From Escherichia coli (lineage in GTDB: Bacteria > Pseudomonadota > Gammaproteobacteria > Enterobacterales > Enterobacteriaceae), in NCBI RefSeq assembly GCF_030013595.1, contig NZ_CP122768.1: a DNA stretch of 64,000 bases; one strand, 5' to 3'. The notes under the pieces were generated by a model. The model worked only from the letters and a program-made list of their open reading frames with translations. It was not told the DNA's origin and ran no database searches. The position numbers and the translations under genes were made by a program. Of the stretch, positions 26,166 through 40,964 are shown one piece after another. The first letter of the stretch is position 1; every line of letters starts with the position of its first letter.

Positions 26166-26432
26166 ATGATGAGCTTTCAGAAGATCTATAGCCCAACGCA
26201 ATTAGCGAATGCAATGAAACTGGTTCGTCAGCAAAATGGCTGGACGCAGAGCGAGCTGGCGAAAAAAATTGGTATTAAGCAGGCGACGATTTCCAATTTC
26301 GAAAACAACCCTGACAATACCACGCTGACGACCTTTTTTAAGATTTTACAGTCGCTTGAACTCTCAATGACGCTATGCGACGCGAAAAATGCCTCGCCAG
26401 AATCAACAGAACAGCAAGATCTGGAGTGGTAA
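26166..26432 (+). CDS. hipB: Antitoxin/repressor HipB (88 aa, XRE-type HTH)
   Basis: MMSFQKIYSPTQLANAMKLVRQQNGWTQSELAKKIGIKQATISNFENNPDN...; the ORF track starts at an upstream TTG, the true start is the ATG at 26166. Confidence 0.9.
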   Translation: MMSFQKIYSPTQLANAMKLVRQQNGWTQSELAKKIGIKQATISNFENNPDNTTLTTFFKILQSLELSMTLCDAKNASPESTEQQDLEW

Positions 26433-27242
26433 TGCCTAAACTTGTCACTTGGATGAACAACCAGCGGGTAGGCGAGTTAACGAAGTTAGCCAACGGCGCG
26501 CACACCTTTAAGTATGCACCGGAGTGGTTAGCCAGCCGTTATGCCAGACCGTTGTCACTTTCGCTGCCATTGCAGAGGGGGAATATCACCTCTGATGCCG
26601 TATTTAACTTCTTCGATAACCTGTTACCCGATAGCCCGATTGTACGTGACCGGATCGTTAAACGTTATCATGCCAAATCCAGACAACCGTTTGATTTATT
26701 GTCAGAAATAGGGCGAGACAGCGTTGGTGCCGTGACGTTAATACCCGAAGACGAAACCGTAACGCATCCGATAATGGCATGGGAAAAGCTTACTGAAGCC
26801 AGACTTGAAGAAGTATTAACGGCTTATAAAGCAGATATCCCTCTGGGCATGATTAGAGAAGAAAATGACTTTTATTCAGGCTGGCGGCAGTTATCGACTC
26901 ACGCCATTTTACGACATCATTTCAGCATTTCCGGTATTGGGTGGCGCAGGAATACACATCAGCGATCTCAAACTGGCAATGGGGCTTAACGCATCCAAAG
27001 GCAAAAAAACGGCAATCGATAAAATTTATCCGCGACATTTTCTGGCGACAGCAAAGTTGCTGAAATTTCCGGAAGTGCAGATGCATGAAATCCTGAGTGA
27101 CTTTGCCAGAATGATTCCGGCAGCACTGGATAACGTGAAGACTTCATTACCGACAGATTTTCCGGAGAACGTGGTGACGGCAGTTGAAACCAATGTGTTG
27201 AGGTTGCACCGTCGGTTAAGCCGAGAATACGGTATTAAGTAA
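26432..27242 (+). pseudogene. hipA: hipA toxin kinase gene with an internal out-of-frame deletion (about 0.5 kb missing)
   Basis: N-terminal 150 residues (MPKLVTWMNNQRVGELTK...GMIREENDF) then the frame breaks near 26870-26878; the C-terminal 125 residues (FIQAGGSYRLTPFYDIISAF...LSREYGIK) continue in a different frame. Locus is 811 bp versus about 1323 bp for intact hipA. Confidence 0.8.
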
Positions 27243-27461
27243 GATATGGGGTTTGGCCGTTGTTAATGAGCAGGACAATCATGACCGCCAACGACTGGAT
27301 TCTCCCTTGGTTTATGTTGGTGCGCATAATGTATATTATGTTAAATAGCCTACGATGGTAAACAACTTCATAAATCTCCATTGCCTTTCACGAAATCAAC
27401 AGGTTAACGATTTCTAACATCCCTCCCATTTCTTGCGTTAGGTGTAGAGTACATTTACTTC

Positions 27462-28280
27462 ATGTCCGCATCAACAATGAGGTTATCTATGTACTCGCTC
27501 AACCAACTAGTTGCCATCAACCACAAACGGCAATGGATTCTGATGGACACGGAAACCTGCTTACCGTTGTTGTACCCACTCAGATATCACATCGATCATT
27601 TGGCTTTTCGTTCATTGTCCACGCAGTCTGCTTCGCTGCAGGCCGTTAAGTTCTTTTACGAATTTTGGTTGCAGAAACACGGCGTCACGTTTTGCTATAG
27701 CTTCTATGCTTCTGGCCACAACCCGTGCATTGCTATTGAGGAAATGTCGGCATTTTCTCACTATCTGGAGAATGGTCGCGTAAGCCAATCAAATTTATTG
27801 GCATTCACTCCAGTCTCCACTTCCCATAGTTTTATCAACGCAGCGCGATTTCGTGCAGTAGCGCAGTTTATTGCTTTTTTGATTAACACGTATGTATCGC
27901 CGGTATATCGGGATGATTCTCCCAAAGCATTATCACTCCAGGCTTCCCGGTTACATACTCGCCTGCGCTTTTGTCGTGACAGTTATCGAGCGTTAACACC
28001 GGGAAAGCATTCTAACCATCGTCATATCCATCAGGGGTTTCAGAGTATGAACCGTGAAATGGTGATCAGTCTGTACACGATTATTGCTCCCTGCTCTAGC
28101 CAAAAATATAACCCATTAAATCCCTTCCCCACCAGAAACACCCAGTTTCGCAACTTTTTGATTATTCGCCTGTTACTGAATTATGGATTGCGAATAGGTG
28201 AATTATTGCTGTTGGAATGCAATTCTATAAAATCAAATATAAAAAAGGATAAGTTTAGTTTGATTGTAACTACAACTTGA
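27462..28280 (+). CDS. Tyrosine recombinase, N-terminal part (Tn554 TnpA-like / GInt integrase 1); probably disrupted
   Basis: 272-aa ORF ending shortly after a box-I-like segment (FLIIRLLLNYGLRIGELLLLECNSI); the catalytic C-terminal motifs are in the next ORF. Confidence 0.55.
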   Translation: MSASTMRLSMYSLNQLVAINHKRQWILMDTETCLPLLYPLRYHIDHLAFRSLSTQSASLQAVKFFYEFWLQKHGVTFCYSFYASGHNPCIAIEEMSAFSHYLENGRVSQSNLLAFTPVSTSHSFINAARFRAVAQFIAFLINTYVSPVYRDDSPKALSLQASRLHTRLRFCRDSYRALTPGKHSNHRHIHQGFQSMNREMVISLYTIIAPCSSQKYNPLNPFPTRNTQFRNFLIIRLLLNYGLRIGELLLLECNSIKSNIKKDKFSLIVTTT

Positions 28281-28305
28281 ATTTAGTCACTCTGCACCGT
28301 TTTAT

Positions 28306-28947
28306 GTGTCCAGGTCGATTAACCAGGTCATCCTTAGTTTCAGTCCGCCAGATTATCAGGCCGCCGTAGCGCGTGGCGAAGCGGCTCTACCAATTATTAC
28401 GCCGACCGACTTGCGCCACAACGTGGGGCACTCACTGGCTATGCAAGGGGTCAGCGCCGAGGAAATCGCGCATATTCTGGGACATACCTCCCTTACTGTT
28501 GCCAAGTATTACATTTTGGCGACACCTGCGCTGGCACTGATTCGAGCCAAAGCGTTGGGTACCAATCCGGTATGGCAAAATATGGTAGCTATGATGTTGA
28601 CTGGTGAACTGACCTCTTCAACGAAATGGCAAGGCCAGCGCGTGGTCGGCATAATCGGTGATCAGTTGCATGATGGGATTGGTGGTTGCTCCAGAGATAA
28701 TGGCGACTGCCCGTTCAGTGAAGTACGCTGCTGCTACGGCTGCCTGTATTATCGCCCCTTTACTGATGGTGACCATCAGGCTGTGCTGGAGAGTGTAGTT
28801 AAAGAAGTCGATGAATTGATCTCCATTTCAGACAGTGTTGGTAACGCCCGCAATCCACTTATTTCCATCCATGAAACCACACAATTTGAAATTCAATCCG
28901 TGATTGCCCGTTGCCGCTTTCGTCAGGAAAAAGGCGGTGTGCGATGA
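28306..28947 (+). CDS. Tyrosine recombinase, C-terminal part (catalytic box II); continuation of the previous ORF
   Basis: Contains DLRHNVGHSLAMQGVSAEEIAHILGHTSLTVAKYY (R-H...H...Y catalytic signature). Separated from the upstream ORF by about 25 nt with a stop; the R-to-HxxR spacing looks shorter than usual. Confidence 0.55.
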   Translation: MSRSINQVILSFSPPDYQAAVARGEAALPIITPTDLRHNVGHSLAMQGVSAEEIAHILGHTSLTVAKYYILATPALALIRAKALGTNPVWQNMVAMMLTGELTSSTKWQGQRVVGIIGDQLHDGIGGCSRDNGDCPFSEVRCCYGCLYYRPFTDGDHQAVLESVVKEVDELISISDSVGNARNPLISIHETTQFEIQSVIARCRFRQEKGGVR

Positions 28948-31310
28948 AAAAATATTTTGCGCAGTTTCACGCCTTTATCACCGAGCAGCAAAGCTGGTTT
29001 GAACAGCATCTGGCGACAGACTTCGAGCAGTCATGGGATGATCCTGTCTGGGTCTGCGGCAGCAATGGTAGTGGCTGGTTACGTGGTAATGGCAAAAATA
29101 AATTACGCTTTGATGAAATCAGCCGTACCAAAGGTATTGAGGGGCGCCATGCAGTGGCAGAAGACTATGCCCGGTTTATGAAAGCCCTGCTGGTACTAGT
29201 GTATCGGAGGCGAAATCGTAGCATATCCCCAGCGGTGGCTGTGGCAACGCTGATGATTTTGAAGCGCTGGTACCACTCGCTATTTGAGATGACCGGGCAA
29301 ACTCACCCAGTGTATCTAACCACCGGGGTAATTCAACGGTCAATGGATAGCCTCAGCGCAGCTTCGTCTCCAGGGGATCCCAATACCGCCAATTACAAAG
29401 GACGCTGTGTCAGTCTGCAAAAAATGGTTAATCACCAGTCATTCACGCTGGTGACACTGCAATATGTGTCTGATGCACAATATACCAATCAAACCAACCT
29501 GACCCGCAAAGCCCGGGAAACCATGGCTCTGAAACAGCAGGACAAGCTGACAGATACCACTACCGATGGTGAAGAGGCGTTGATTACCATTCGCGGTTTT
29601 CTGAACATCGTCGAATTAATCCAGCGGGTGGAAAGTGATGCTGAGAAAATTGCGTTAAATTGCCTGTTGTTATTGGTTATCACCGGCTTTCGCTCCATTG
29701 AAGCGTTTAATCTCAGACAGGATGCGCTGTTTAAACGCCAGATTGATGATCCGGCAATCCGCAAGCGGTTTCAGGACAAGGGATTACCCGATTATTTCCT
29801 TGGTATCCGTTATATTGGTGTCAAAGGTGCTGGGGAGCGAACGCATTGGGTAGAACCGCTGGCTGTACCGCTGGTCGAGAGTATATTCAGTTCCGTTAAA
29901 ATATTGACCGCACCAAAACGCAGTCATCTGACCTATCTACGGGAGAAATCTTTTACTGATTACCTGCCACAGGCCATCAGCGCCCTACCCGGTGAACAAG
30001 TTGAACTGGATGATGTGGTGACGTACATCACACAAACCGCCTCAAGTTTTCGTGGCCGGGCAGGACAACGAGACAAAACATCCAAAGCCCTCAACAAACG
30101 AGGTGTGCTGCCCGTTCTAGAAATGCCAGGGCCGAAAAACAGCAAATCTATCTATTATTCCAAGACTGACCTTAATCATTACATCAAGACCGAATTTGGC
30201 CTGACGGATGCCAACGAACCCTGTACGCACGCCTGGATGGAAAATGGCAAACGTTACGAAGTTAACTACGAAGACCTGTTATTTCTACATGAGAAGGGTT
30301 CGCTGGCATTAAAGCGCACACTGGCTTTGCTGGCTATACCGATACCATTCACTAACACACTTATGAATAAATTTTTAGGCAATGTTGAGCCTGATGGATC
30401 AGTATTCAGCAAATATCAATTACTGGAAGAGAATGGTACCCCCACCCGGATGCGTACCCACATTCCCCGGCACAACATCAATACCTTTCTTGCTATTGCG
30501 GATATCTCTGACCACTTACAGGCAATGTTGATGGGGCGAGTGGACATCACGCAGAATCAGCACTATCAACATCTGGCGCTTGCAGAACGGCGAAAAGCAG
30601 CCTCGTTGGTGCCCTTGCAGCCGATATCGACAGCACTAACTGCCGCGCCCTCTTCGTCCTCCATTGCTACGCCACTGGAAATCGTCAAACGGACCGGCCA
30701 ACTGGCGGTCACGAAACACATGACTTTGGACAATACCATCAAAGCCAACCTGCATACTTTTGACGATCGGGATGATGTAGCCAGGTTTGTCGAGGCGTCA
30801 TTTGCTGACGGCCTCTTTGAAGATGTTGCTGCCGCCTTTGAAGAAATCCGCGACGCAGAAGGACCAGAGCAAGCCTCTGCCATGGTGGCAAGACATGCCG
30901 TGATGTATCCGCTGAAATTTGGCTCCTGTATGCGGGAAGTTAACCTCTGGGGATGTCCTTATCGACTGAAATGCCAGAGTGCTGCCTTTTGTGAACATTT
31001 CACGCTGACAGGCCGGATAGATGAGCTACCCAATCTGATTGCCAAAAAACAGGCGTTACAGCAAGCACATTCGAAGTTGACCCAACTTACACAACATCAG
31101 CCTGACTACCAGACCAGACTGGCCGACATCGAACGACGGTTACAGCAACTCGAGGCAATACAAGCACAATGGCAGCGTCGTGCCAAGACTCAACAACTGG
31201 TTGCTGCGGAGAGTGTGTTGTCTGGTGGAGTAATCACCGAGGGCAAAGTCCGTACACTGGCCCAGCTTTTTGCACTTGAATACCAACAATTGATGCAGGA
31301 GAACGACTGA
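28944..31310 (+). CDS. Large tyrosine recombinase (Tn554 TnpB-like / GInt integrase 2), about 788 aa
   Basis: Box I-like LLLLVITGFRSIEAFNLRQD and box II-like THIPRHNINTFLAIADISDHLQAMLMGRVDITQNQHYQHL; ATG at 28944 overlaps the upstream stop (ATGA), suggesting translational coupling. Confidence 0.65.
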   Translation: MKKYFAQFHAFITEQQSWFEQHLATDFEQSWDDPVWVCGSNGSGWLRGNGKNKLRFDEISRTKGIEGRHAVAEDYARFMKALLVLVYRRRNRSISPAVAVATLMILKRWYHSLFEMTGQTHPVYLTTGVIQRSMDSLSAASSPGDPNTANYKGRCVSLQKMVNHQSFTLVTLQYVSDAQYTNQTNLTRKARETMALKQQDKLTDTTTDGEEALITIRGFLNIVELIQRVESDAEKIALNCLLLLVITGFRSIEAFNLRQDALFKRQIDDPAIRKRFQDKGLPDYFLGIRYIGVKGAGERTHWVEPLAVPLVESIFSSVKILTAPKRSHLTYLREKSFTDYLPQAISALPGEQVELDDVVTYITQTASSFRGRAGQRDKTSKALNKRGVLPVLEMPGPKNSKSIYYSKTDLNHYIKTEFGLTDANEPCTHAWMENGKRYEVNYEDLLFLHEKGSLALKRTLALLAIPIPFTNTLMNKFLGNVEPDGSVFSKYQLLEENGTPTRMRTHIPRHNINTFLAIADISDHLQAMLMGRVDITQNQHYQHLALAERRKAASLVPLQPISTALTAAPSSSSIATPLEIVKRTGQLAVTKHMTLDNTIKANLHTFDDRDDVARFVEASFADGLFEDVAAAFEEIRDAEGPEQASAMVARHAVMYPLKFGSCMREVNLWGCPYRLKCQSAAFCEHFTLTGRIDELPNLIAKKQALQQAHSKLTQLTQHQPDYQTRLADIERRLQQLEAIQAQWQRRAKTQQLVAAESVLSGGVITEGKVRTLAQLFALEYQQLMQEND

Positions 31311-31744
31311 TGCGCGGCAAGGAACTGGACACACTGATCGAGCACGAATTACAACTGATGCTGGTTGAAGGCTTTGACAAGTCCCCTATTTCCGCCAAGG
31401 CCCTGCATATTCGGCTCAAGGCAAAAGGTATCGTTAACGGTGGTTTAAGTACGCTGAGCAGCCTTGAGCGAAAACGCCTAATTGCTGCCTATGTTGATCA
31501 GCAACTTGGCCCATTGAATCTACGCCCAAAAGAAAAACAGCAATACGTCAACCGCAAAACCCGTCAGGCCTTGCTGGCCAGAAACCAGCAGTTGCAGGCG
31601 GAAGTCAGTGAGCTGCGAGACCAACTGGCGCAGAATACCCTGTCGTTGATAGAAATTGTCAAAGCGGTAAAAATCAATACAGTTATTCCGGTGGAAAGTC
31701 TGTTGGCTAAACATGTAATTCGGGAGTTACACAAGTCGTTATAA
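31310..31744 (+). CDS. Small coiled-coil protein (Tn554 TnpC-like / GInt accessory protein)
   Basis: 144-aa ORF whose ATG overlaps the upstream stop (TGATG); predicted coiled-coil (QQLQAEVSELRDQLAQNTLSL). Third gene of a recombinase-recombinase-small protein module. Confidence 0.5.
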   Translation: MRGKELDTLIEHELQLMLVEGFDKSPISAKALHIRLKAKGIVNGGLSTLSSLERKRLIAAYVDQQLGPLNLRPKEKQQYVNRKTRQALLARNQQLQAEVSELRDQLAQNTLSLIEIVKAVKINTVIPVESLLAKHVIRELHKSL

Positions 31745-31908
31745 TGCTGACATAGGAATATTTCGCCGACAGTTTCCCGGTTGTCGGCGAAATGCTGATT
31801 GTAATTTTTCGGCAAAGGGCATGGACGATTTCTTTTCGTTATTCTGCATATTGCTTACCTTCCCAAATTTCTCCAACCGTTAGTTGGAGAAATTAGATGG
31901 GTCGTAAA

Positions 31909-32103
31909 TCATGAATAAACGCCTTGATCTATTCGAAAAATGAGAATTGCAACTTTCAACGCCCCCTCTTCTGAGTCCATTATCTCAGAGGACGCTTTCC
32001 ACTGTAATGCTCTGTTTGGTTCATTGCACCAGTTTAATGCTGCACTTTCGTTACCTTCAAAAAGATCAATAGCCTTTTGTATAACATCATTTTTTGTCAG
32101 CAT
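31909..32103 (-). CDS. DUF2384-like (Xre/MbcA/ParS antitoxin toxin-binding domain) fragment, likely the frameshifted C-terminus of the upstream XRE protein
   Basis: ...AALNWCNEPNRALQWKASSEIMDSEEGALKVAILIFRIDQGVYS resembles the DUF2384 C-terminal signature; overlaps the XRE ORF by 17 nt across an A6 tract (T6 at 32090-32095 on the + strand). Confidence 0.45.
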   Translation of the reverse strand: MLTKNDVIQKAIDLFEGNESAALNWCNEPNRALQWKASSEIMDSEEGALKVAILIFRIDQGVYS

Positions 32104-32419
32104 GTTTTACACCTGAAGACGTTTTGAGTGCTTCGATAAGGCTACTTCGCTCTTCCTCTGTCATCCGAGATATGAGTAATGCAAGTTCTGCTGTTGTCTG
32201 ATCATCACAAAAAAGGTAGTTCAACGGCACGTTTAACTCTGCTGCCATCCGTCGAAGCGTATCAATATCGGGGACATGGCGTCCTTTCTCATAATGATTC
32301 ATACGACTGCTAGCCGATGCAGGATCAAAGCCAACAAGGAGACCCAGAGAGCGCTGTGATAAACCAGCCCTGCATCTCGCTTCCTTAAGTCGTTCTGGTA
32401 TCGGATTTTTTTCAGACAC
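32087..32419 (-). CDS. XRE-family HTH DNA-binding protein (110 aa)
   Basis: HTH signature LKEARCRAGLSQRSLGLLVGFDPASASSRMNHYEKGRHVPDIDTLRRMAAELNV. Confidence 0.7.
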   Translation of the reverse strand: MSEKNPIPERLKEARCRAGLSQRSLGLLVGFDPASASSRMNHYEKGRHVPDIDTLRRMAAELNVPLNYLFCDDQTTAELALLISRMTEEERSSLIEALKTSSGVKHADKK

Positions 32420-32503
32420 TGATTCATCTTCATTGGCCTCGAATGCTTAGATTGTCTAAGTATCTGCCATTGTTGTATACTTAGCAATCCTAAGTTAATA
32501 GCC

Positions 32504-33076
32504 TTGTTTTGTCATATGAATAGCCGAGTAACCAACCCTGAGTCGTACATATTTTCTGCAATCATCTTAATTGGCAAAGATAACTTCACCAGTAACGAAG
32601 TAGCAAAAATTCTTATCGAGCGATTTTCACTTCCGAAAAATTATTTAAAGGCAAAAGCTTTTGCTTATAACCAAATTCAATCCCTGGTTAGAAAAGGATT
32701 ATTAAACAAAGTAAGAAAAACAGGCGTGTATCAATATTTATACTCAGTCACAGCAGAATTCAATGTCGCAATAGAGTGCGTGAAATTAATTGAGGCAACC
32801 CCAAAGTCTTCCTGTCAACTTGTTTCAAGTGCTACCAACCATGAACACAGAAATGTAAATATCCAAATAAAGTCTCTTATTGAAAAATACAGCAGTGAAT
32901 TGGCGAAAGTATCAGGAGCAAAGGAGATTTATGAGGAATTGATAGTTGCTGTGCCGAGCAGGGAAAATGAATTCAGGAAGCTTTCTCTTGAACAAGAGAA
33001 AAAACACATCAAGATAAATGAAAAAATAAATACATTAATTGGAATTATTAATCAATCTCTTGCAGTAAGGCAATGA
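32504..33076 (+). CDS. Hypothetical protein (190 aa), AT-rich, divergent from the XRE gene
   Basis: Open frame only; lysine-rich with a possible N-terminal winged-helix-like segment and C-terminal coiled coil. No family recognised. Confidence 0.5.
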   Translation: MFCHMNSRVTNPESYIFSAIILIGKDNFTSNEVAKILIERFSLPKNYLKAKAFAYNQIQSLVRKGLLNKVRKTGVYQYLYSVTAEFNVAIECVKLIEATPKSSCQLVSSATNHEHRNVNIQIKSLIEKYSSELAKVSGAKEIYEELIVAVPSRENEFRKLSLEQEKKHIKINEKINTLIGIINQSLAVRQ

Positions 33077-33891
33077 ATTTTAGCAAGTATTTGAAGCTAA
33101 ATGGAGTCATGAAAAAGAGAGGGCAAAGCCGAACTCCGCCCTCTCCCGTCAAGCACTGATATATCTCATTAAAATGAGATTAACAGCGCGCACTCCTATA
33201 TGCTAGTCGTATATAAATATAATGTCAGCCAGTCCCGGATGCAACTCTTTAATGAAGTTCAGTACTCTCTTTTTTTAGTTATCGAAATGATAGTTGGTAC
33301 AAGGGAACACACGAAGAGGAAAATTGCGATGACTTTGACGCAGAGCATGTTGAGTCTATTATTGCGACCCTCGAAGCTCTGGATGCGTTAGATTTACGCC
33401 ACGGAAGATGGACTGTAAGTATCCCTCCAATAGTGCGACTCACTTACCCAGATTGTAAGTTCAAACGGTCGAAGGCACTAGATTCTGATAAGAATTTGAG
33501 GCGCATGAGTACAGGCATTCGATTGTCAGCTTCTGGGTAGTTGTGGGAATTCTGCTCAAAGTGCCGCTGGCCAAAACATATTGGGCGCTGGTCTGTGGCG
33601 GCAAAATGGTGTCACGTAAAAGATACAGATGTTCCAGTCTATTTTTGCCCAATAACGTGCCCCGGGTTCAGTTTTTTTGCTCGGGACTAAAACGCTTATC
33701 CAGATCAGCCGCCAGCTGTTCAATACTCTTCGTTGAGCCTTTATAAATATACCAATCAAACTGTTAAAAACTCGTTCAAATTCGACCAAATATTATTACT
33801 GGCTGATATTAGTTCGGTTAGGCAAAGCGCAACAAACAACTAAGAAGTGCGCCTCAAAAAATTAATTGTAAGGCGCCCCCCTAAAACACAT

Positions 33892-36219
33892 TTATTCTGT
33901 TATATTTCTTGGCAACATAGAAAAAGATGCTTGAGACAATCCTGCGCGCTTGAATTTATACCGTATATATGTTGACACTTCCATCTCATGGTTTGACAAC
34001 AAAATCTGACGATCTGAAAGCTCTACCCGTAACAAATCACTCAATGAAGCAATGTTAATCTCATCCATTGACTGTACTGGATCATCAATCAGTATAAATG
34101 GATTAAGCGCATATACCCTATTCAATGTTAGGAAAAATGCCAAACCTAATGATGCGATTTGCCCACTACTCATAGACAGGATTGCATCATGATCAGACTT
34201 CAGCGCAGTATTGAATTTGAGTATATCTCCTTTACCGCTCACTATAAACAAACCTAACCCACGCTGATAATTCTGTATGAGTCTTCCACTATATATATGG
34301 AATAACAGCTCTATATCACCAATAGTCTTTTTCGCATACTGTTTCGCAGTGTCGTCCAATTGCCGCCTAAGATTAACAATTTTTGCTTTTATTTTTTTGC
34401 CAGCTTCAATCCTAGAACTGAGCTTATCAAGCTCCGCTACTTTGGACTTGTACTCTTCGCTTTTGAATTTAGAATGAGCGGCTCTGAGATAGGATTCTTT
34501 ATTTTCAAAATCTGAAACACTAAGTGAGGTTATATCTGATGCGTTCAAGAAAGCCATCTCTAAGCTAGATGACCAGTCTAAAGGGAGCACATCCTTTTCT
34601 GGTTTTTTAGCTGTAGCAATAATCCCTTTTGCTTCATTAAACCGTAACAGCAGAGCTGCATCATCAGCCGTAAAACTAAGATCTTTTGATACGCCATAAT
34701 TTACCAACTGCAAAGCCACTTCACTTATGATTGAGAACTTAGATTCTGCTGCTGTGAGAGCCTTAAAAAGCACACTATCGAAATCTTTTGCAACTAGGTC
34801 ACGCTGCTGTGTGAATGCTGTTATCTGTAAATTTAGTAAGTCCTGTATTGACCTTACTGTCTCCTCCAACTTCTGGGCAGAAGCATCTATTTCAGATCGA
34901 ATTCTTTCCGCATTATTTACAGCGGCTTCCTCTAACGCAGCGTAAGTCGCCCATGATAACCCACAGAATGGACAACCGGAAATTTCCAAATCTTCACATT
35001 CTTGGTGTCGCCGCAGCAACTCTGCATGAGCATTTAGTAAATTTACAAGCTTTGCGTTCTTAGCTGCACTATCAGATTTAATTAGATCCCGTGCCTCAAT
35101 GAGACTATTTACACCAACCAAATCAGCAGCGTTCTTAAGACCGTTTAGGTCTACTTCATTTATCTCTGAAGCTGGCTTTCTGAATATCAAAAGATCATGA
35201 TCCAGCCCAACTAGCGTTGACTCCTTTACTTTCAGACCTTCATATCCAGCTACTTCAGAACCCAACTGAAGAGCCAACTTTATATCGACCTCTCTTTTTA
35301 AAAACGCATCAATATTACTATTAGCCTTTCTCGTCAGAACTTCATCAAAGTTCTGATATATTCTAAATATATTCCGTAATTCACGTATCAGAGTTTCAAT
35401 ATCTGTATCATTTACAGCCGATAGAGGCTGTTCAACATCCCAACCAGGTGACGGCGTCGCGGTACTTAACCGCTTGAAGTCAACGGAATTCTCGGCATCT
35501 TGAAACTGACCACTAAGCTGTTTAATTTTTTCATTCAACTCAGCCTGGAGGTCAGTATGCACTTTCCCCGTATAAGATTCCGTAATAATACTTTCTAACT
35601 CGGAGCAATATGATATCTGTCTCGTCAATTTATCGGTATTAATAAGATGCTCAATGCCTTTTTTTCTTTCAGTGGCATCCGTCGAGTACAGGTATCTATT
35701 CTGCCCTTGCTCAAGATAGTTCAATAAAGAGAAATTTTTTAAGAAGTTCTCTCCTAGAATACTCTCTAGTGCTTTAGAATCAAGACTCTCTCCAAACTTA
35801 TCGGAGTCTATACTGCTTATTTCGTAAAGCTTAAAAATAGAGAAGTTATCAGGTGCATTATTATCCGGGTTCGATAAATCCGCTATGGTAGCAACACGAG
35901 CTAGGAAAATTGACTCTCCTGAATCTTGATTTATGAGCTCAGCTCTAATAGCGATGTCGCCCTCTTTATTTCTATTCCAGTATATGTTTTCTTCAAATTG
36001 TTTTTTGCGCGAACGTTTTGCAACTGTTGCATCATTTGTATTGATAATTCTTTGTATAACGCCAGTAAACAAAAGCTCCAACGCATCAAATATGCTAGTT
36101 TTTCCAAAACCATTGGGGCCATCCAAGGTAATCATGGAGGCAGATCGAAAATCAATAGATGTATTTTCAAATGGCTTGAAATTTTCAATCTTGAGGCTGG
36201 ATATTTTCCATTTCTTCAT
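33892..36219 (-). CDS. Rad50/SbcC/SMC-like ABC ATPase with coiled-coil insert and CxxC zinc-hook-like motif (LmuB-like), 775 aa
   Basis: N-terminal Walker A (IENFKPFENTSIDF...LDGPNGFGKTSIFDALELLF), central CPFCG motif in a predicted coiled coil, C-terminal signature/Walker B/H-loop (SSGQIASLG...FILIDDPVQSMD...LLSNHE). Confidence 0.65.
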   Translation of the reverse strand: MKKWKISSLKIENFKPFENTSIDFRSASMITLDGPNGFGKTSIFDALELLFTGVIQRIINTNDATVAKRSRKKQFEENIYWNRNKEGDIAIRAELINQDSGESIFLARVATIADLSNPDNNAPDNFSIFKLYEISSIDSDKFGESLDSKALESILGENFLKNFSLLNYLEQGQNRYLYSTDATERKKGIEHLINTDKLTRQISYCSELESIITESYTGKVHTDLQAELNEKIKQLSGQFQDAENSVDFKRLSTATPSPGWDVEQPLSAVNDTDIETLIRELRNIFRIYQNFDEVLTRKANSNIDAFLKREVDIKLALQLGSEVAGYEGLKVKESTLVGLDHDLLIFRKPASEINEVDLNGLKNAADLVGVNSLIEARDLIKSDSAAKNAKLVNLLNAHAELLRRHQECEDLEISGCPFCGLSWATYAALEEAAVNNAERIRSEIDASAQKLEETVRSIQDLLNLQITAFTQQRDLVAKDFDSVLFKALTAAESKFSIISEVALQLVNYGVSKDLSFTADDAALLLRFNEAKGIIATAKKPEKDVLPLDWSSSLEMAFLNASDITSLSVSDFENKESYLRAAHSKFKSEEYKSKVAELDKLSSRIEAGKKIKAKIVNLRRQLDDTAKQYAKKTIGDIELLFHIYSGRLIQNYQRGLGLFIVSGKGDILKFNTALKSDHDAILSMSSGQIASLGLAFFLTLNRVYALNPFILIDDPVQSMDEINIASLSDLLRVELSDRQILLSNHEMEVSTYIRYKFKRAGLSQASFSMLPRNITE

Positions 36220-36940
36220 GAATCAGAGTCTCGATTAGTTTGTCTGCTTCAATCCCAGATGCAGAAGCATTAAAGATTTTGAGATGAAGACCGGTCAATT
36301 TTTTCTCGGCGAGTGCTTCCTTTACATAAATATCAAGCGGCTTTAGTGAGCTTTCCTTAACAGGAACCTTTACAAATGGAAGCTTTATAAAAATTCTCGC
36401 CGCGACGCTATATAATGTAGGCGATAGTGGTTGATCTCGATATTCTGCAAACATCCTATCATCGACAACAATCGCTGAAACGCTTTCGAAGTTGTGCCCT
36501 TCTAACAACCTAAGCTCTTCCTCGCTGTAATAAAGAAAATATTTTTTAAAATAATATGGATTCTCTTCAATTCCAAACACCTTACTCTCAATTCCATTAA
36601 AATCAACTCGGTGCCTTAATTTATGCAAAATAATCAGATCGGTATTTTTATCGAAAGCAGGATCAGATTTGAATGTTTCAGGAGCATACAGTAACACTAA
36701 TTTATTCAGCACCTGCGGTGATGGTATATTTTCACACTCAACCACAGCGAGGAATCGCTTCCTATCTCCACTATCCTGACTAAAATAAGTCAAAGACTTA
36801 TAATCAACACCTTCAAGACCAGCTAAAGTTTCTCCTGCCGAATACTCTATGGTGACGTCATCTGCTTTAGAATAGTCGCCTGTATTAAACAAAGTAAACT
36901 CATGTTTCAAGGCAGCCTGTAGAACAATATCTTTAATCAT
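36185..36940 (-). CDS. Middle gene of the three-gene operon (251 aa), unknown function, possibly LmuC-like
   Basis: Start overlaps the upstream stop by 8 nt and its 3' end overlaps the downstream ATPase start, indicating translational coupling. No recognisable motif. Confidence 0.5.
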   Translation of the reverse strand: MIKDIVLQAALKHEFTLFNTGDYSKADDVTIEYSAGETLAGLEGVDYKSLTYFSQDSGDRKRFLAVVECENIPSPQVLNKLVLLYAPETFKSDPAFDKNTDLIILHKLRHRVDFNGIESKVFGIEENPYYFKKYFLYYSEEELRLLEGHNFESVSAIVVDDRMFAEYRDQPLSPTLYSVAARIFIKLPFVKVPVKESSLKPLDIYVKEALAEKKLTGLHLKIFNASASGIEADKLIETLIHEEMENIQPQD

Positions 36941-38195
36941 TCAACTTCACCCTCGCCTCTTCCTTTGAAATTATTTTTGCATCAAAGGCTTTAGTTATTT
37001 TGTTACGATCCTTACCCATCAATGAAAACTCATCTTCTACAGCATCCCGCGAAGCTCCGGTAGCTGCACAAAATCGCTCAGCGGGTGAAAAAATATTTGC
37101 TCTAGCTGCGATTAGCCATTGATATTCAACTAAGATATCTATCAGCTCTGGATCGCTTTTCAGCTGCTCTATTAGATCTTCAGCAAACCTATGCTCCCGT
37201 CGAGCATTGTCTGCCGAAATTGCTGTTGGCAAATAAAAATCTCCGGCAGAGCACCTATAGTAAGGAGGCTTTTGCTCACTCAGTGGCGCTTTATCTATAT
37301 CGTAGATCACATCCACATAATCATAAACACTGTTCTCACTCACGACCATTGTGGAAGATCCAAAACATAACGACTTCCACAACCATATAAATGGAGTATC
37401 ACCCAACTCTTTAATCTGATCGTAAACATTTGCAACTTTTTGAATAACAGTTCTATCTGCTGTTTTTTCCATTGTATTGGTATACCCATACAATGATTTA
37501 CAAACGGCCATCCTGGCTTGGAACATTTTGTATACAATGTCGTCTTCATGGGTAGCGGTGAGGCTTAATAACTCTACAATCTTCTCACTTTTTAAAGTTT
37601 GAGTAAACGCGGCTTGTGCGGCGCTCATTAACCCATCCTGATTGCACGCGTGTATATATATTACTTGAGCGGCAATATGACTCTGCAAAGCCTCGAACTT
37701 CAAATTCACTAAAAAATCACTGCAAGGTAACTCTTCGGAAACCAGGTACTTCTCAATTTTTGATTTCGTTTTTTCTTCAACATCTTGGAGATAGCAGTAA
37801 GGCAGTCCATCGTAAGTATAAAATTTAACGACATTCCCATTGCTGCCAACAAAATCAGAAGCATCATCAAGGCGCGCAGATGTATGAAAATATCTTTTGG
37901 TAGTCTTATCACACAACATATATGTAGATGCAGCTTTTTCGAGAGCCTCCCTATAGGCAGCTCTTTTATCATCTGCTAGCGCTTTTACCTGATGCGTAGA
38001 AACTGCAACTCCATTTTCAATTATCGAAAAATCATCAATGCTGTCGATTTGCAACTCAAACGACATTTTATTGAGCACACATTCTATGGAATGATAAAGC
38101 GCTAAATGCCCTTGATAAATAAACCCACTCCATGTAGGTGCAGCTGTATGAGGATGGGAGGAAGCCGATTTCGACATGCAATATGTCCTAGGCAA
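36933..38195 (-). CDS. Candidate effector of a three-gene defense operon: PD-(D/E)xK nuclease-like protein (possibly Cap4/DUF4297-like, LmuA-like), 420 aa
   Basis: N-terminal region WSGFIYQGHLALYHSIECV...QIDSIDDFSIIENGVAVSTHQVK has the E..D..E/QxK spacing of restriction-endonuclease-fold proteins; first gene of an overlapping operon; AT-rich. Confidence 0.5.
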   Translation of the reverse strand: MPRTYCMSKSASSHPHTAAPTWSGFIYQGHLALYHSIECVLNKMSFELQIDSIDDFSIIENGVAVSTHQVKALADDKRAAYREALEKAASTYMLCDKTTKRYFHTSARLDDASDFVGSNGNVVKFYTYDGLPYCYLQDVEEKTKSKIEKYLVSEELPCSDFLVNLKFEALQSHIAAQVIYIHACNQDGLMSAAQAAFTQTLKSEKIVELLSLTATHEDDIVYKMFQARMAVCKSLYGYTNTMEKTADRTVIQKVANVYDQIKELGDTPFIWLWKSLCFGSSTMVVSENSVYDYVDVIYDIDKAPLSEQKPPYYRCSAGDFYLPTAISADNARREHRFAEDLIEQLKSDPELIDILVEYQWLIAARANIFSPAERFCAATGASRDAVEDEFSLMGKDRNKITKAFDAKIISKEEARVKLND

Positions 38196-38524
38196 ATTTA
38201 GAGACAGAGTCAGAAGTAACCTTCTAACTCAGTAGAATATGATCTTAATTTCTGTATCCGATGTTTATATTTTTTGTTGAACGCGCCCAGCGGCGTTATG
38301 AAAACTTCCTTGATTGTCATTTTTATGCATTCTCTTGATCGATAGGAATTTAAATCCCAAAAAGATTAAAAAAACACCCAAAAACGGATGTTTATTCGAC
38401 ACTGCCTGCGTGCCATGAGTGCACCGCCATCAATTAAATGGATCTTATCGAGTGATACTGTATATCACTGATGGTTTTTTACTCCATTCCCCTGAAAATG
38501 GACGCAACTTCCCCGATGCGGCTC

Positions 38525-39757
38525 TCAGCCGCACACCCGCTGTTGCGCCAGTGGCTCATGCATCAGGACCAGCTCTGTCAGACGGTAGCCCCGCTTCAGC
38601 CCCGTAAAACGCATCTGACATCCGCACAGGATGCACTTTAGCGGGTCAACCTTCAGTAACCGCTGATACATCCCTCTCCACCTGATTTGCATCGCCGTCT
38701 TTCTCACCGTCTCCGTTATGACGTACACAACATCTTCCAGTAACCGGCGCTTTACCGGACTCAGGAAACCGTAGTACCTCACCATACGGAACCCCTTATC
38801 CGCCACATGCCAGGAGAACCTTTCCATAAACTCATCACCACTCATCACCAGGTATTCTTCCCGTTTTGTCCGGTGACTGTTGTAACGCAGACCAATTTCA
38901 TCCTGACCAGCATAGTGCTCCAGACGGCTCATCGGCACCGGCGGTTTTTTCAGGTAAGAGCCGAAGTACACCGCCACATGTGTGGCGTTATCCATCACCC
39001 GGGATACGTTGACATTCCAGCCCCGCCGGTAATGACTGTCCAGGAAGCGATTCCAGTCCCGTCTGCTGCTTCCTTCAACTGCCAGCGCATCCGGTATCAC
39101 CAGCTCCGGGTATTTTCGTGACAGTAACCACGTTATCCTGTAACGCCACATGCTCATCACCTTACGGGCGTAAAAATGAAGGTTTTTCCAGGTGTGGTCT
39201 GGTGTCACGCCGCCGGCCGTTGTCGACAGGTGAATGTGCGGATGCCACTGCTGGTCACGTCCCCATGTGTGGATGACCGTGAATATCCCCGGCACCACAT
39301 CTGCCTGGCGGCAGATTTCCTGTATCACATCCGCAGCAATGCGGCTCATCTCTGCCAGTAACCACCGGTTGTGGAACACCAGGGACCAGTACTGGCAGGG
39401 AAGTGTGAACACAATATGCTGCCACGGACAGTCGGGAACCAGACTCAGCAGATACTGTATCCACTGTGCGCCAGCCTTCACTCCGCAGTGCGGGCAGGAG
39501 CGACTTTTACACCGGAAGCAGACCTTTTTTGTGTGGCAACAGTCCGGAGATGAACAGCACCACTGTGTGTACCCCATCAGCGTGGTTCCGCACGCCATGA
39601 TTTTTGTCACCGACTCAATGACTACCGGACGCACTGAACCTTCCGGTTGTTTCTCCAGCCAGTTAAGCCAGCGGTTTCCCTGCTGAAAAATGTCGGCAAA
39701 ACGGGGAAGCATCAGAAGGGCGGGGGGACTCCGTCCGGCCAGTGAACCGTGCCACAC
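38525..39757 (-). CDS. tnpA: IS91-family transposase (HUH rolling-circle type)
   Basis: 410-aa ORF with N-terminal Cys-rich zinc-binding region (CHTKKVCFRCKSRSCPHCG) and HUH-like motif HTWGRDQQWHPHIH. Confidence 0.7.
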   Translation of the reverse strand: MWHGSLAGRSPPALLMLPRFADIFQQGNRWLNWLEKQPEGSVRPVVIESVTKIMACGTTLMGYTQWCCSSPDCCHTKKVCFRCKSRSCPHCGVKAGAQWIQYLLSLVPDCPWQHIVFTLPCQYWSLVFHNRWLLAEMSRIAADVIQEICRQADVVPGIFTVIHTWGRDQQWHPHIHLSTTAGGVTPDHTWKNLHFYARKVMSMWRYRITWLLSRKYPELVIPDALAVEGSSRRDWNRFLDSHYRRGWNVNVSRVMDNATHVAVYFGSYLKKPPVPMSRLEHYAGQDEIGLRYNSHRTKREEYLVMSGDEFMERFSWHVADKGFRMVRYYGFLSPVKRRLLEDVVYVITETVRKTAMQIRWRGMYQRLLKVDPLKCILCGCQMRFTGLKRGYRLTELVLMHEPLAQQRVCG

Positions 39758-40077
39758 TCCGGGCAGTACATGCCGCCGGCGCTGATACCGGCAAGAATGG
39801 TCGCAAACTCCCGCTCCGTGCAGCGGGCTATTTCAGGATACCCTTCGTCATCGACACGAACAAACCAGAAGACCAGCTTTTTGTTTCCGGCATCCACAAA
39901 GAAGGGAATATTCAGGTCTGCGCAGCACTCAACGGCATCGTCAAAATTATCAAAGCGCAGAGCTTCTGCGTCTTCTTCGTCAAAGAAGTCATCGTCGTGA
40001 AGCTTCACGACATAGCGGGGAAGTTTGCTTCTTTGAGGGGCAGGTTTTCGTTTACGGGGTTTAGCTGAACGGGACAT
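39712..40077 (-). CDS. IS91 ORF121-like accessory protein
   Basis: 121-aa ORF immediately upstream of and overlapping the transposase gene, the size and position of IS91 orf121. Confidence 0.5.
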   Translation of the reverse strand: MSRSAKPRKRKPAPQRSKLPRYVVKLHDDDFFDEEDAEALRFDNFDDAVECCADLNIPFFVDAGNKKLVFWFVRVDDEGYPEIARCTEREFATILAGISAGGMYCPECGTVHWPDGVPPPF

Positions 40078-40964
40078 ATAACTACCTGAAAGACAATGAT
40101 ATTGTCTGTTTTTATAACGGTAATTTCAGGCCATGACAAGCCGCAGCCGCCAAGCTGCCTACTCGAGCGATATCGCTATGATATCACCGAATGTAACATA
40201 CCTGTAGGGTCAAAAAAAGGGTCAGCCAAACATTCTGGAGTGTTCGGTATCGTTGGTACCATTCATGCAAAATGGACTTAAATCTTAAGAAAGACACTCC
40301 ATTAGCTTAAGCTTCCCTACCTTACCCTACCAATACACCTAGCCAGCCGTGAGAACGCTACCGCCATCAGAGGCATTAGTCCCGATTAAGTATCGATGCA
40401 ACCAAATGTTACCAAAATTCATGAATTGTTCAAGAAGGCAATCAGATAATCCCTAAAGCTTTATGGGCCTGGTTATGCGATTACATTGGGAAATGGTTCA
40501 TGAACAGAAGTAGAGCAAGCTGCCAAGAAATGCTCATAAGAGGCGAATTTCCTGTTAGTTCATGAAGCCACCTGGAAGTGAATTCATCTTTCTATTAAAA
40601 ATATTCATTTAAAGCAAAGAGATATGTCATCTGTGGTTTATGAACTGGATTCTCGCTCAACATAAGTTAAATGTGGTGGGTTTGTTCTTAAGTTCATGTG
40701 TTCCGCTCTTTCAGTAGCTTAACTGATGAATCAGTCAGCAGCTCTTGCCGTGCAAGCTACGCGGCGGTTCGTACCAGATTGGCCACCTCCATCTCCTGGT
40801 TCGCTTTCCCCTCCCCCCGGTAAACCTCACCCAACGTTAATTAATGATGTCAGTATGTGGGCGCTATCCTTGTATGTAAAATCCACTGACGATTATGCCC
40901 ATCTGTGAAAAAAACTCACAATGCCATTCGATGCATCTCCATACTGAACGAGGCGTTATCGTCT

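Follow-up and report, generated by a model that had tools for sequence, protein, structure and literature searches.

The 64-kb window, the whole stretch of Escherichia coli DNA analysed here, carries a complete insertion sequence of the IS91 type. Judged from its sequence, it is very probably a transposition-competent copy that was placed by an ordinary two-ended rolling-circle event, via a single-strand circle. Not only the kind of element but also its very sequence was known before; the site is newly recorded. The element contains orf121, the gene of a 395-aa HUH/Y2 transposase and both ends, oriIS and terIS (Table 1). Its top strand runs 5'-CGAGTAGG...CCTATCGAT-3', which on the window + strand is 5'-ATCGATAGG...CCTACTCG-3'. 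The GC content over the element is 54-57%, against 37-41% in the adjoining defence operon.

Table 1. Features of the IS91-type element and its immediate flank, in window coordinates.
Feature	Position	Strand	Description	Basis
Complete IS91-type insertion sequence	38338..40165	-	1828 bp	Extent set by empty site and identical plasmid copy
Native leader	38178..38337	-	160 bp; flank outside the IS that separates it from the RefSeq start codon (ATG, 38177) of the first ABC-3C gene	
Target tetranucleotide 5'-CTTG	38334..38337	+	Flank abutting oriIS, outside the IS, unduplicated	Present in empty site
oriIS end	38338..38393	-	Terminal TTCCTATCGAT and two imperfect subterminal palindromes	
tnpA	38525..39712	-	HUH/Y2 single-strand nuclease transposase, 395 aa	Pfam, NCBIfam, RefSeq identity
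orf121	39712..40077	-	121 aa	RefSeq identity, TGATG overlap, residue pattern
Putative Porf121-like promoter	40111..40139	-	TTGTCA, 17 nt, TATAAA; inside the terIS region	Sequence reading
terIS end	40143..40165	-	Palindrome GCAGCTTGGCGGCTGC (40158..40143) and terminal cleavage tetranucleotide	

The insertion can be read directly from its empty site. The two window flanks were joined into an artificial empty site of 2000 bases, which was searched against E. coli chromosomes. Among the matches listed, at least 17 E. coli chromosomes align with the joined flanks uninterrupted across the junction, and two of them match along the full 2000 bases at 99.9%. A base-by-base reading at two empty-site loci gives ...ATGCATTCTCTTG|AGCGATATCGC..., so that the empty sequence ...TCTCTTG|AGCGATATC... 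stands against ...TCTCTTG-ATCGATAGG...CCTACTCG-AGCGATATC... in the window. The occupied site minus the empty site is exactly 1828 bp, and a target duplication is absent. Because related chromosomes have the locus without the element, the event was a simple insertion in which no co-mobilised DNA took part. It lies in non-coding DNA and left the annotated genes intact. In the reconstructed empty site no substantial open reading frame crosses the insertion point, the longest frame having 77 codons (51 aa from the first Met) and being unannotated in RefSeq. The occupied site was found in 0 of 5426 complete E. coli genomes, so the insertion is either recent or strain-specific.

Copies of the element were sought by megablast in the same 5426 complete E. 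coli genomes and in PLSDB. Thousands of related copies were found, and the best alignments end at about 40166 and about 38334 of the window. In five fetched copies aligned with their flanks, the conserved block runs from (T)CGAGTAGGCAGC to AATTCCTATCGAT. A left end at 40166 (TCGAG...), a one-nucleotide A/T ambiguity, was considered and ruled out: the terIS cut follows 5'-CTCG, and the flanking base in plasmid CP057295.1 differs from that of the window, being other than T. The left end was therefore set at 40165, and the empty site together with the identical plasmid copy delimits the element as 38338..40165. The sequence-only reading had placed it at 38400-40150, which is the right place but too narrow, missing 62 bp at the oriIS end and 15 bp at the terIS end. 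That reading had also proposed defining both ends, ori and ter, along with the target tetranucleotide; all three were found, and the element is complete.

The two ends are unlike each other and bear subterminal palindromes in place of long terminal inverted repeats, as is typical of the IS91 family. DNA folding places the oriIS palindromes at 38393..38372 and 38371..38349; two subterminal palindromes have been described for the oriIS of IS91 (PMC13181058), and the oriIS end is conserved in a copy that PGAP names as IS91. The 38393..38372 palindrome is followed by a T-run and forms a terminator-like site pointing at the defence operon, the hairpin having a predicted energy of -10.1 kcal/mol as RNA (z -2.4). 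At the other end, the terminal 5'-CTCG occupies 40162..40165 on the + strand, which reads ...CCTACTCG|AGCG across the terIS junction. CTCG is the published terIS cleavage site of IS91 (PMC13181058). Folded as DNA, the end hairpins were no stabler than shuffled sequence (z 0.2 to -1.5), and the palindromes were therefore assigned by position and by conservation with IS91. Published targets of IS91 are 5'-CTTG and 5'-GTTC (PMC13181058). On the top strand, the neighbour of oriIS was CAAG in three and GAAC in three of the six copies compared.

Both genes of the element are those expected of IS91. TnpA matches the Pfam families Y2_Tnp (PF04986, 5.6e-39) and Zn_Tnp_IS91 (PF14319, 8.5e-19), as well as the NCBIfam equivalog NF033538 (IS91 family transposase) at 287 bits with a cut-off of 125. 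Its HUH region, H157-H161 (HPHIH), lies within HTWGRDQQWHPHIH; the tyrosine pair is Y249/Y253 (YFGSY, 249-253), and the Cys pairs CFRC and CPHC of the N-terminal zinc-binding cluster lie at 65-76. The protein is 100% identical to RefSeq WP_000937591.1 and is named merely 'IS91 family transposase' by PGAP. Its start is the ATG that overlaps the orf121 stop by one base in TGATG (39714..39710); an upstream GTG start would give the 410-aa open reading frame that was listed for the window. The position of orf121 upstream of tnpA with this overlap has been called unique to IS91 (PMC13181058). Orf121 is 100% identical to RefSeq WP_000091308.1, and its 121-aa sequence matched no Pfam or NCBIfam family. 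Its translation keeps V49/L55/V61/L68/V75 and C105-x2-C108, which are the positions given for Orf121 of IS91 (PMC13181058). The -10 box TATAAA of IS91 was shown by a mutation experiment to drive orf121 and tnpA (PMC13181058). TTGTCA as the -35 box of the putative Porf121-like promoter is our own reading of the sequence. The sequence-only reading had recognized an IS91-family rolling-circle element with a HUH transposase and an ORF121-like gene, and this identification is borne out by Pfam, by NCBIfam and by the two open reading frames on the minus strand. The motif and the cysteine cluster that it had quoted were likewise both found in the transposase.

Partial matches to the IS91 family are frequent in E. 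coli: no more than 29 of the 1932 matching records cover at least 80% of the 2301-bp query. On these grounds it was considered whether the element is an IS91 remnant, truncated or decayed and lacking functional ends. The likelihood of this is close to nil. Both ends are present and conserved, the two open reading frames are of full length and encode proteins identical to widespread RefSeq entries, and the element measures 1828 bp against 1830 bp in the IS91 copy named by PGAP. Thus neither the missing IS91 ends nor the truncated transposase remnant that the earlier reading had envisaged was encountered. Since the parts of the complete element are intact and identical copies stand at different sites, the element is very probably active.

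The copies elsewhere point to a plasmid origin. Related places in E. coli number 3001 on plasmids against 476 on chromosomes. The copy on pRHB30-C10_3 (CP057295.1), an IncF plasmid of pig-farm E. coli, is identical at 1828/1828 positions, a rare terIS base included; it lies near mph(B), and its left flank is unlike that of the window. This identity places the same clone of the element both in this chromosome and on a conjugative plasmid. Many pig ETEC plasmids have copies one base off the window element at several other sites, the deviating base being window position 40153. The source is most likely a plasmid of the pRHB30-C10_3 type, and transfer from plasmid to chromosome would be the likelier direction because plasmids account for most of the related places in E. 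coli. The chromosomal copy in EC556, between nfsA and ybjC, is two bases apart from the window element and represents a second, independent insertion. When the same 1828 bp were removed from EC556, the remainder matched ordinary E. coli chromosomes at 600/600 positions. A target-site duplication is absent at both independent insertions. In addition, head-to-tail tandem junctions CCTATCGAT|CGAGTAGG were found on plasmids; these fit the single-strand-circle model without proving it.

Because the element belongs to the IS91 family, a rolling-circle route via single-strand circles may be assumed for it. On the model of published IS91 work, TnpA (HUH/Y2) would nick the bottom strand (the + strand of the window) immediately 3' of the tetranucleotide that adjoins oriIS. 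Displacement of the nicked strand would then proceed across tnpA and orf121 to terIS, where the strand would be cut after 5'-CTCG. As a single-stranded circle, this bottom strand would be pasted 3' of 5'-CTTG or 5'-GTTC, leaving the target unduplicated. Orf121 would restrain transposition and improve termination.

The rare base lies in terIS. At window position 40153 the top strand has T, against C in nearly all copies, and the loop-closing pair of the terIS palindrome is lost. The variant occurs in 0 of 537 matching records among complete E. coli genomes and in 2 of 372 plasmid records. With it, the predicted fold of the 46-nt bottom-strand context becomes less stable, at -5.9 instead of -8.7 kcal/mol. 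A change private to the window copy was considered and dropped, since two plasmid records carry it in an otherwise identical element; the two PLSDB plasmids with the variant (111,016 bp) are from pooled pig faeces in the UK. With this insertion the variant ended properly at CTCG at least once, and the weakened palindrome is therefore not disabling.

The insertion took place in a defence island. Comparison with E. coli KE55, which is without the ABC-3C genes, defines a 13.3-kb island at 27347..40669, between hipA and the LysR gene, with GTTAAAT direct repeats at 27340..27346 and 40663..40669 as its boundaries. The whole IS is contained in the island, 504 bp short of its right edge. The three genes downstream of the element form an ABC-3C system, composed of a CTD1 protein with a Cap4-nuclease-like N-terminus, MComp1 and an ABC/SMC-like ATPase, and their RefSeq names agree. 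The IS and the ABC-3C operon are co-oriented, the operon ATG being 160 bp downstream. Genomes that lack the IS have no annotation between the operon start and the LysR gene, and an Rfam scan of the whole window gave no match. The sequence-only reading had described the element as wedged between a defence-like operon and a metabolic cluster. It does adjoin the upstream region of the operon, the 160-bp native leader, but it is situated inside the island and not between two modules.

The same reading had suggested that the IS may have helped to assemble or move a neighbouring module. One-ended transposition, by which the defence operon or the LysR/metabolic cluster would have been carried here, is well documented for IS91, whose termination is imperfect (PMC13181058), and the window copy has a weakened terIS palindrome. 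At this locus it is nevertheless highly improbable. In HCP5S3_I2 and LCP30S3_I5 the operon, leader, LysR gene and metabolic genes are contiguous without the IS, with flanks 99.9% identical; the uninterrupted insertion site is also found in A25 and others, and the junction differs by the 1828-bp element alone. Because the modules are contiguous in relatives that lack the IS, the element neither built nor delivered either of them. The GTTAAAT boundaries of the island are unrelated to the IS ends. One-ended transposition takes DNA beyond terIS (PMC13181058), which here (window >40165) is the LysR/metabolic side; the defence operon is on the oriIS side and so beyond its reach. Further ori-like or ter-like ends in the 64-kb window were limited to chance-level matches with two mismatches (32608 and 57690), and a composite structure is excluded because a second IS91 end is absent from the window. 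The suggestion is thus refuted at this locus by the empty sites, and for the operon side by geometry. The preferred reading remains the simple insertion of a complete element.

An effect of the insertion on the ABC-3C operon is a separate matter and is compatible with simple insertion. The IS might alter ABC-3C expression either by read-through from Porf121 and tnpA, or by severing the operon from a promoter or regulatory site in the distal 504 bp; such an effect is considered unlikely. The orientation is the same and the distance only 160 bp, Porf121 is active in IS91 by experiment (PMC13181058), and in the reconstructed leader the best matches to a promoter consensus fall distal to the insertion point. 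Against read-through stands the terminator-like hairpin of the oriIS end with its T-run, which separates the operon from tnpA. The operon keeps a native promoter candidate, a weak one whose boxes TAAACA and GATCAT are 17 nt apart and which lies 61 nt ahead of the ATG, and promoter-like sites in the region occur at the rate of shuffled sequence (4 found, 3.8 expected). Around the junction, the compared part of the leader is identical to that of empty-site genomes, the flanks being 99.9% identical overall. As to whether the promoter region of the operon is native or IS-derived, a check put forward by the sequence-only reading, the 160-bp leader proved native. A promoter scan and a relaxed consensus scan predicted no outward promoter in the oriIS end and placed only weak candidates, at chance rate, on both sides of the insertion point. 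A bolder proposal is that the terIS weakened at 40153 might be over-run more often than usual, turning the element into a one-ended launch pad for the LysR/aldo-keto-reductase cluster, and that, separately, the co-oriented IS 160 bp upstream might rewire ABC-3C expression; this must be regarded as quite improbable.

Among named systems, the element is closest in organization to IS91 itself (prototype X17114, from E. coli alpha-haemolysin plasmids). The two have in common the orf121-tnpA order and TGATG overlap, a HUH/Y2 TnpA with a zinc-binding N-terminus and Y249/Y253, the Porf121 -10 box TATAAA in terIS, the terIS palindrome and the terminal CTCG. They also share the oriIS end TTCCTATCGAT with two subterminal palindromes, CTTG/GTTC as target and the absence of a target duplication. 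As a proxy for X17114.5, the copy on plasmid NZ_CP031548.1 that PGAP names 'IS91-like element IS91' was used. The window element is 90.4% identical to this proxy in DNA, with lengths of 1828 and 1830 bp respectively, and agrees with it at 376/395 residues of TnpA (95.2%) and 115/121 of Orf121. Similarity is lowest, at only 66% identity, in the 100 bp that lead from the tnpA stop to the oriIS palindromes. An IS91 isoform has been defined by at least 95% TnpA and at least 95% nucleotide identity to X17114.5 (PMC13181058). Judged against the proxy copy, the comparison suggests that the window element falls below the nucleotide threshold. The isoform rule of ISfinder asks for at least 95% identity in amino acids and more than 90% in nucleotides.

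The rolling-circle transposases of ISCR elements are related HUH/Y2 enzymes whose gene is followed by oriIS, and these elements are known for capturing adjacent DNA. Usually a recognisable terIS is missing from them and captured resistance genes adjoin. In the window element, by contrast, terIS is intact and nothing has been captured. IS1294/IS1294b and IS801 have in common with the window element the transposase family, the oriIS/terIS logic, a tetranucleotide target, the absence of a target duplication and one-ended transposition (PMC13181058). They are without orf121, their terIS and target tetranucleotides are GTTC or GTCC, and in IS1294 oriIS has only one palindrome (PMC13181058). Unlike them, the window element contains orf121 and has CTCG at terIS.

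For an IS91-type variant that is common in pig-associated E. coli but unnamed, the analysis fixes both ends to the base. The element is a recent insertion into a chromosomal defence island and has little importance beyond annotation. Several E. coli lineages that lack the IS have the ABC-3C operon and its island as native DNA. In this strain only the expression context of the operon is altered, namely everything more than 160 bp upstream of its start codon.

On the oriIS side of the IS91-type element, the three-gene ABC-3C defence operon belongs to a low-GC island that is inserted between hipA and the LysR regulator gene and bounded by GTTAAAT direct repeats (see the table). Comparison with the window showed that E. 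coli KE55 does not carry this island. Pfam returned no match for several of its ORFs, including the one of 799 aa.

Beside the island, about 510 bp of hipA that are present in E. coli KE55 (L008 5023..5534) are missing from the window at 26871/26872. What remains is an ORF in which the HipA N-terminal coupling domain is the sole domain, so the toxin gene of hipBA appears to be truncated in the window's strain. On the terIS side, the closest relatives with an empty IS site, HCP5S3_I2 and LCP30S3_I5, carry ISVsa5 (IS4-like; 10968..12176 of L006, an empty-site relative) in place of a stretch of approximately 9.6 kb that holds metabolic and fimbrial genes in the window (44122..53776); the window's strain therefore retains the longer arrangement. 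In both relatives, the LysR gene is interrupted by an internal stop and is a pseudogene.

Features of the defence island, hipA and the plasmid tandems
Feature	Sequence	Position	Remark
Low-GC island with ABC-3C operon	Window	27347..40669	13.3 kb; 11.5 kb without the IS
GTTAAAT direct repeats	Window	27340..27346 and 40663..40669	Island bounds
Phage-integrase fragment	Window	28306..28947	Weak; within island
799-aa ORF	Window	28911..31310	Within island; no Pfam match
204-aa ORF, remaining hipA	Window	26375..26989	HipA N-terminal coupling domain only
Tandem junction	L005	~600	
Tandem junctions	L009	579/580 and 2408/2409	
Tandem junction	L010	4328/4329	

A single base, window 40153, separates this IS copy from those that are common on pig ETEC plasmids. 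It lies within the 16-nt terIS palindrome of the 1828-bp element, and two pig-farm plasmids of 111 kb are the only others with the variant. IS91-type copies also occur on plasmids as head-to-tail tandems, in which CCTATCGAT is joined to CGAGTAGG, and canonical-like and window-type variants are sometimes mixed in one tandem. Such tandems may have formed when an element inserted at the CTCG of a terIS already in place, or when termination failed.

At all four of the independent simple insertions examined (window 38337/38338 and the left junctions of L001, L002 and L003), T directly precedes the top-strand target tetranucleotide, CAAG or GAAC; the bottom strand thus reads CTTG or GTTC, each followed by A. 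Comparison with empty sites verified two of these insertions. At equal base frequencies, T would occur in all four by chance in ~0.4% of cases, the sample being tiny. Since the T is constant, these four insertions hint that the target preference spans five bases.
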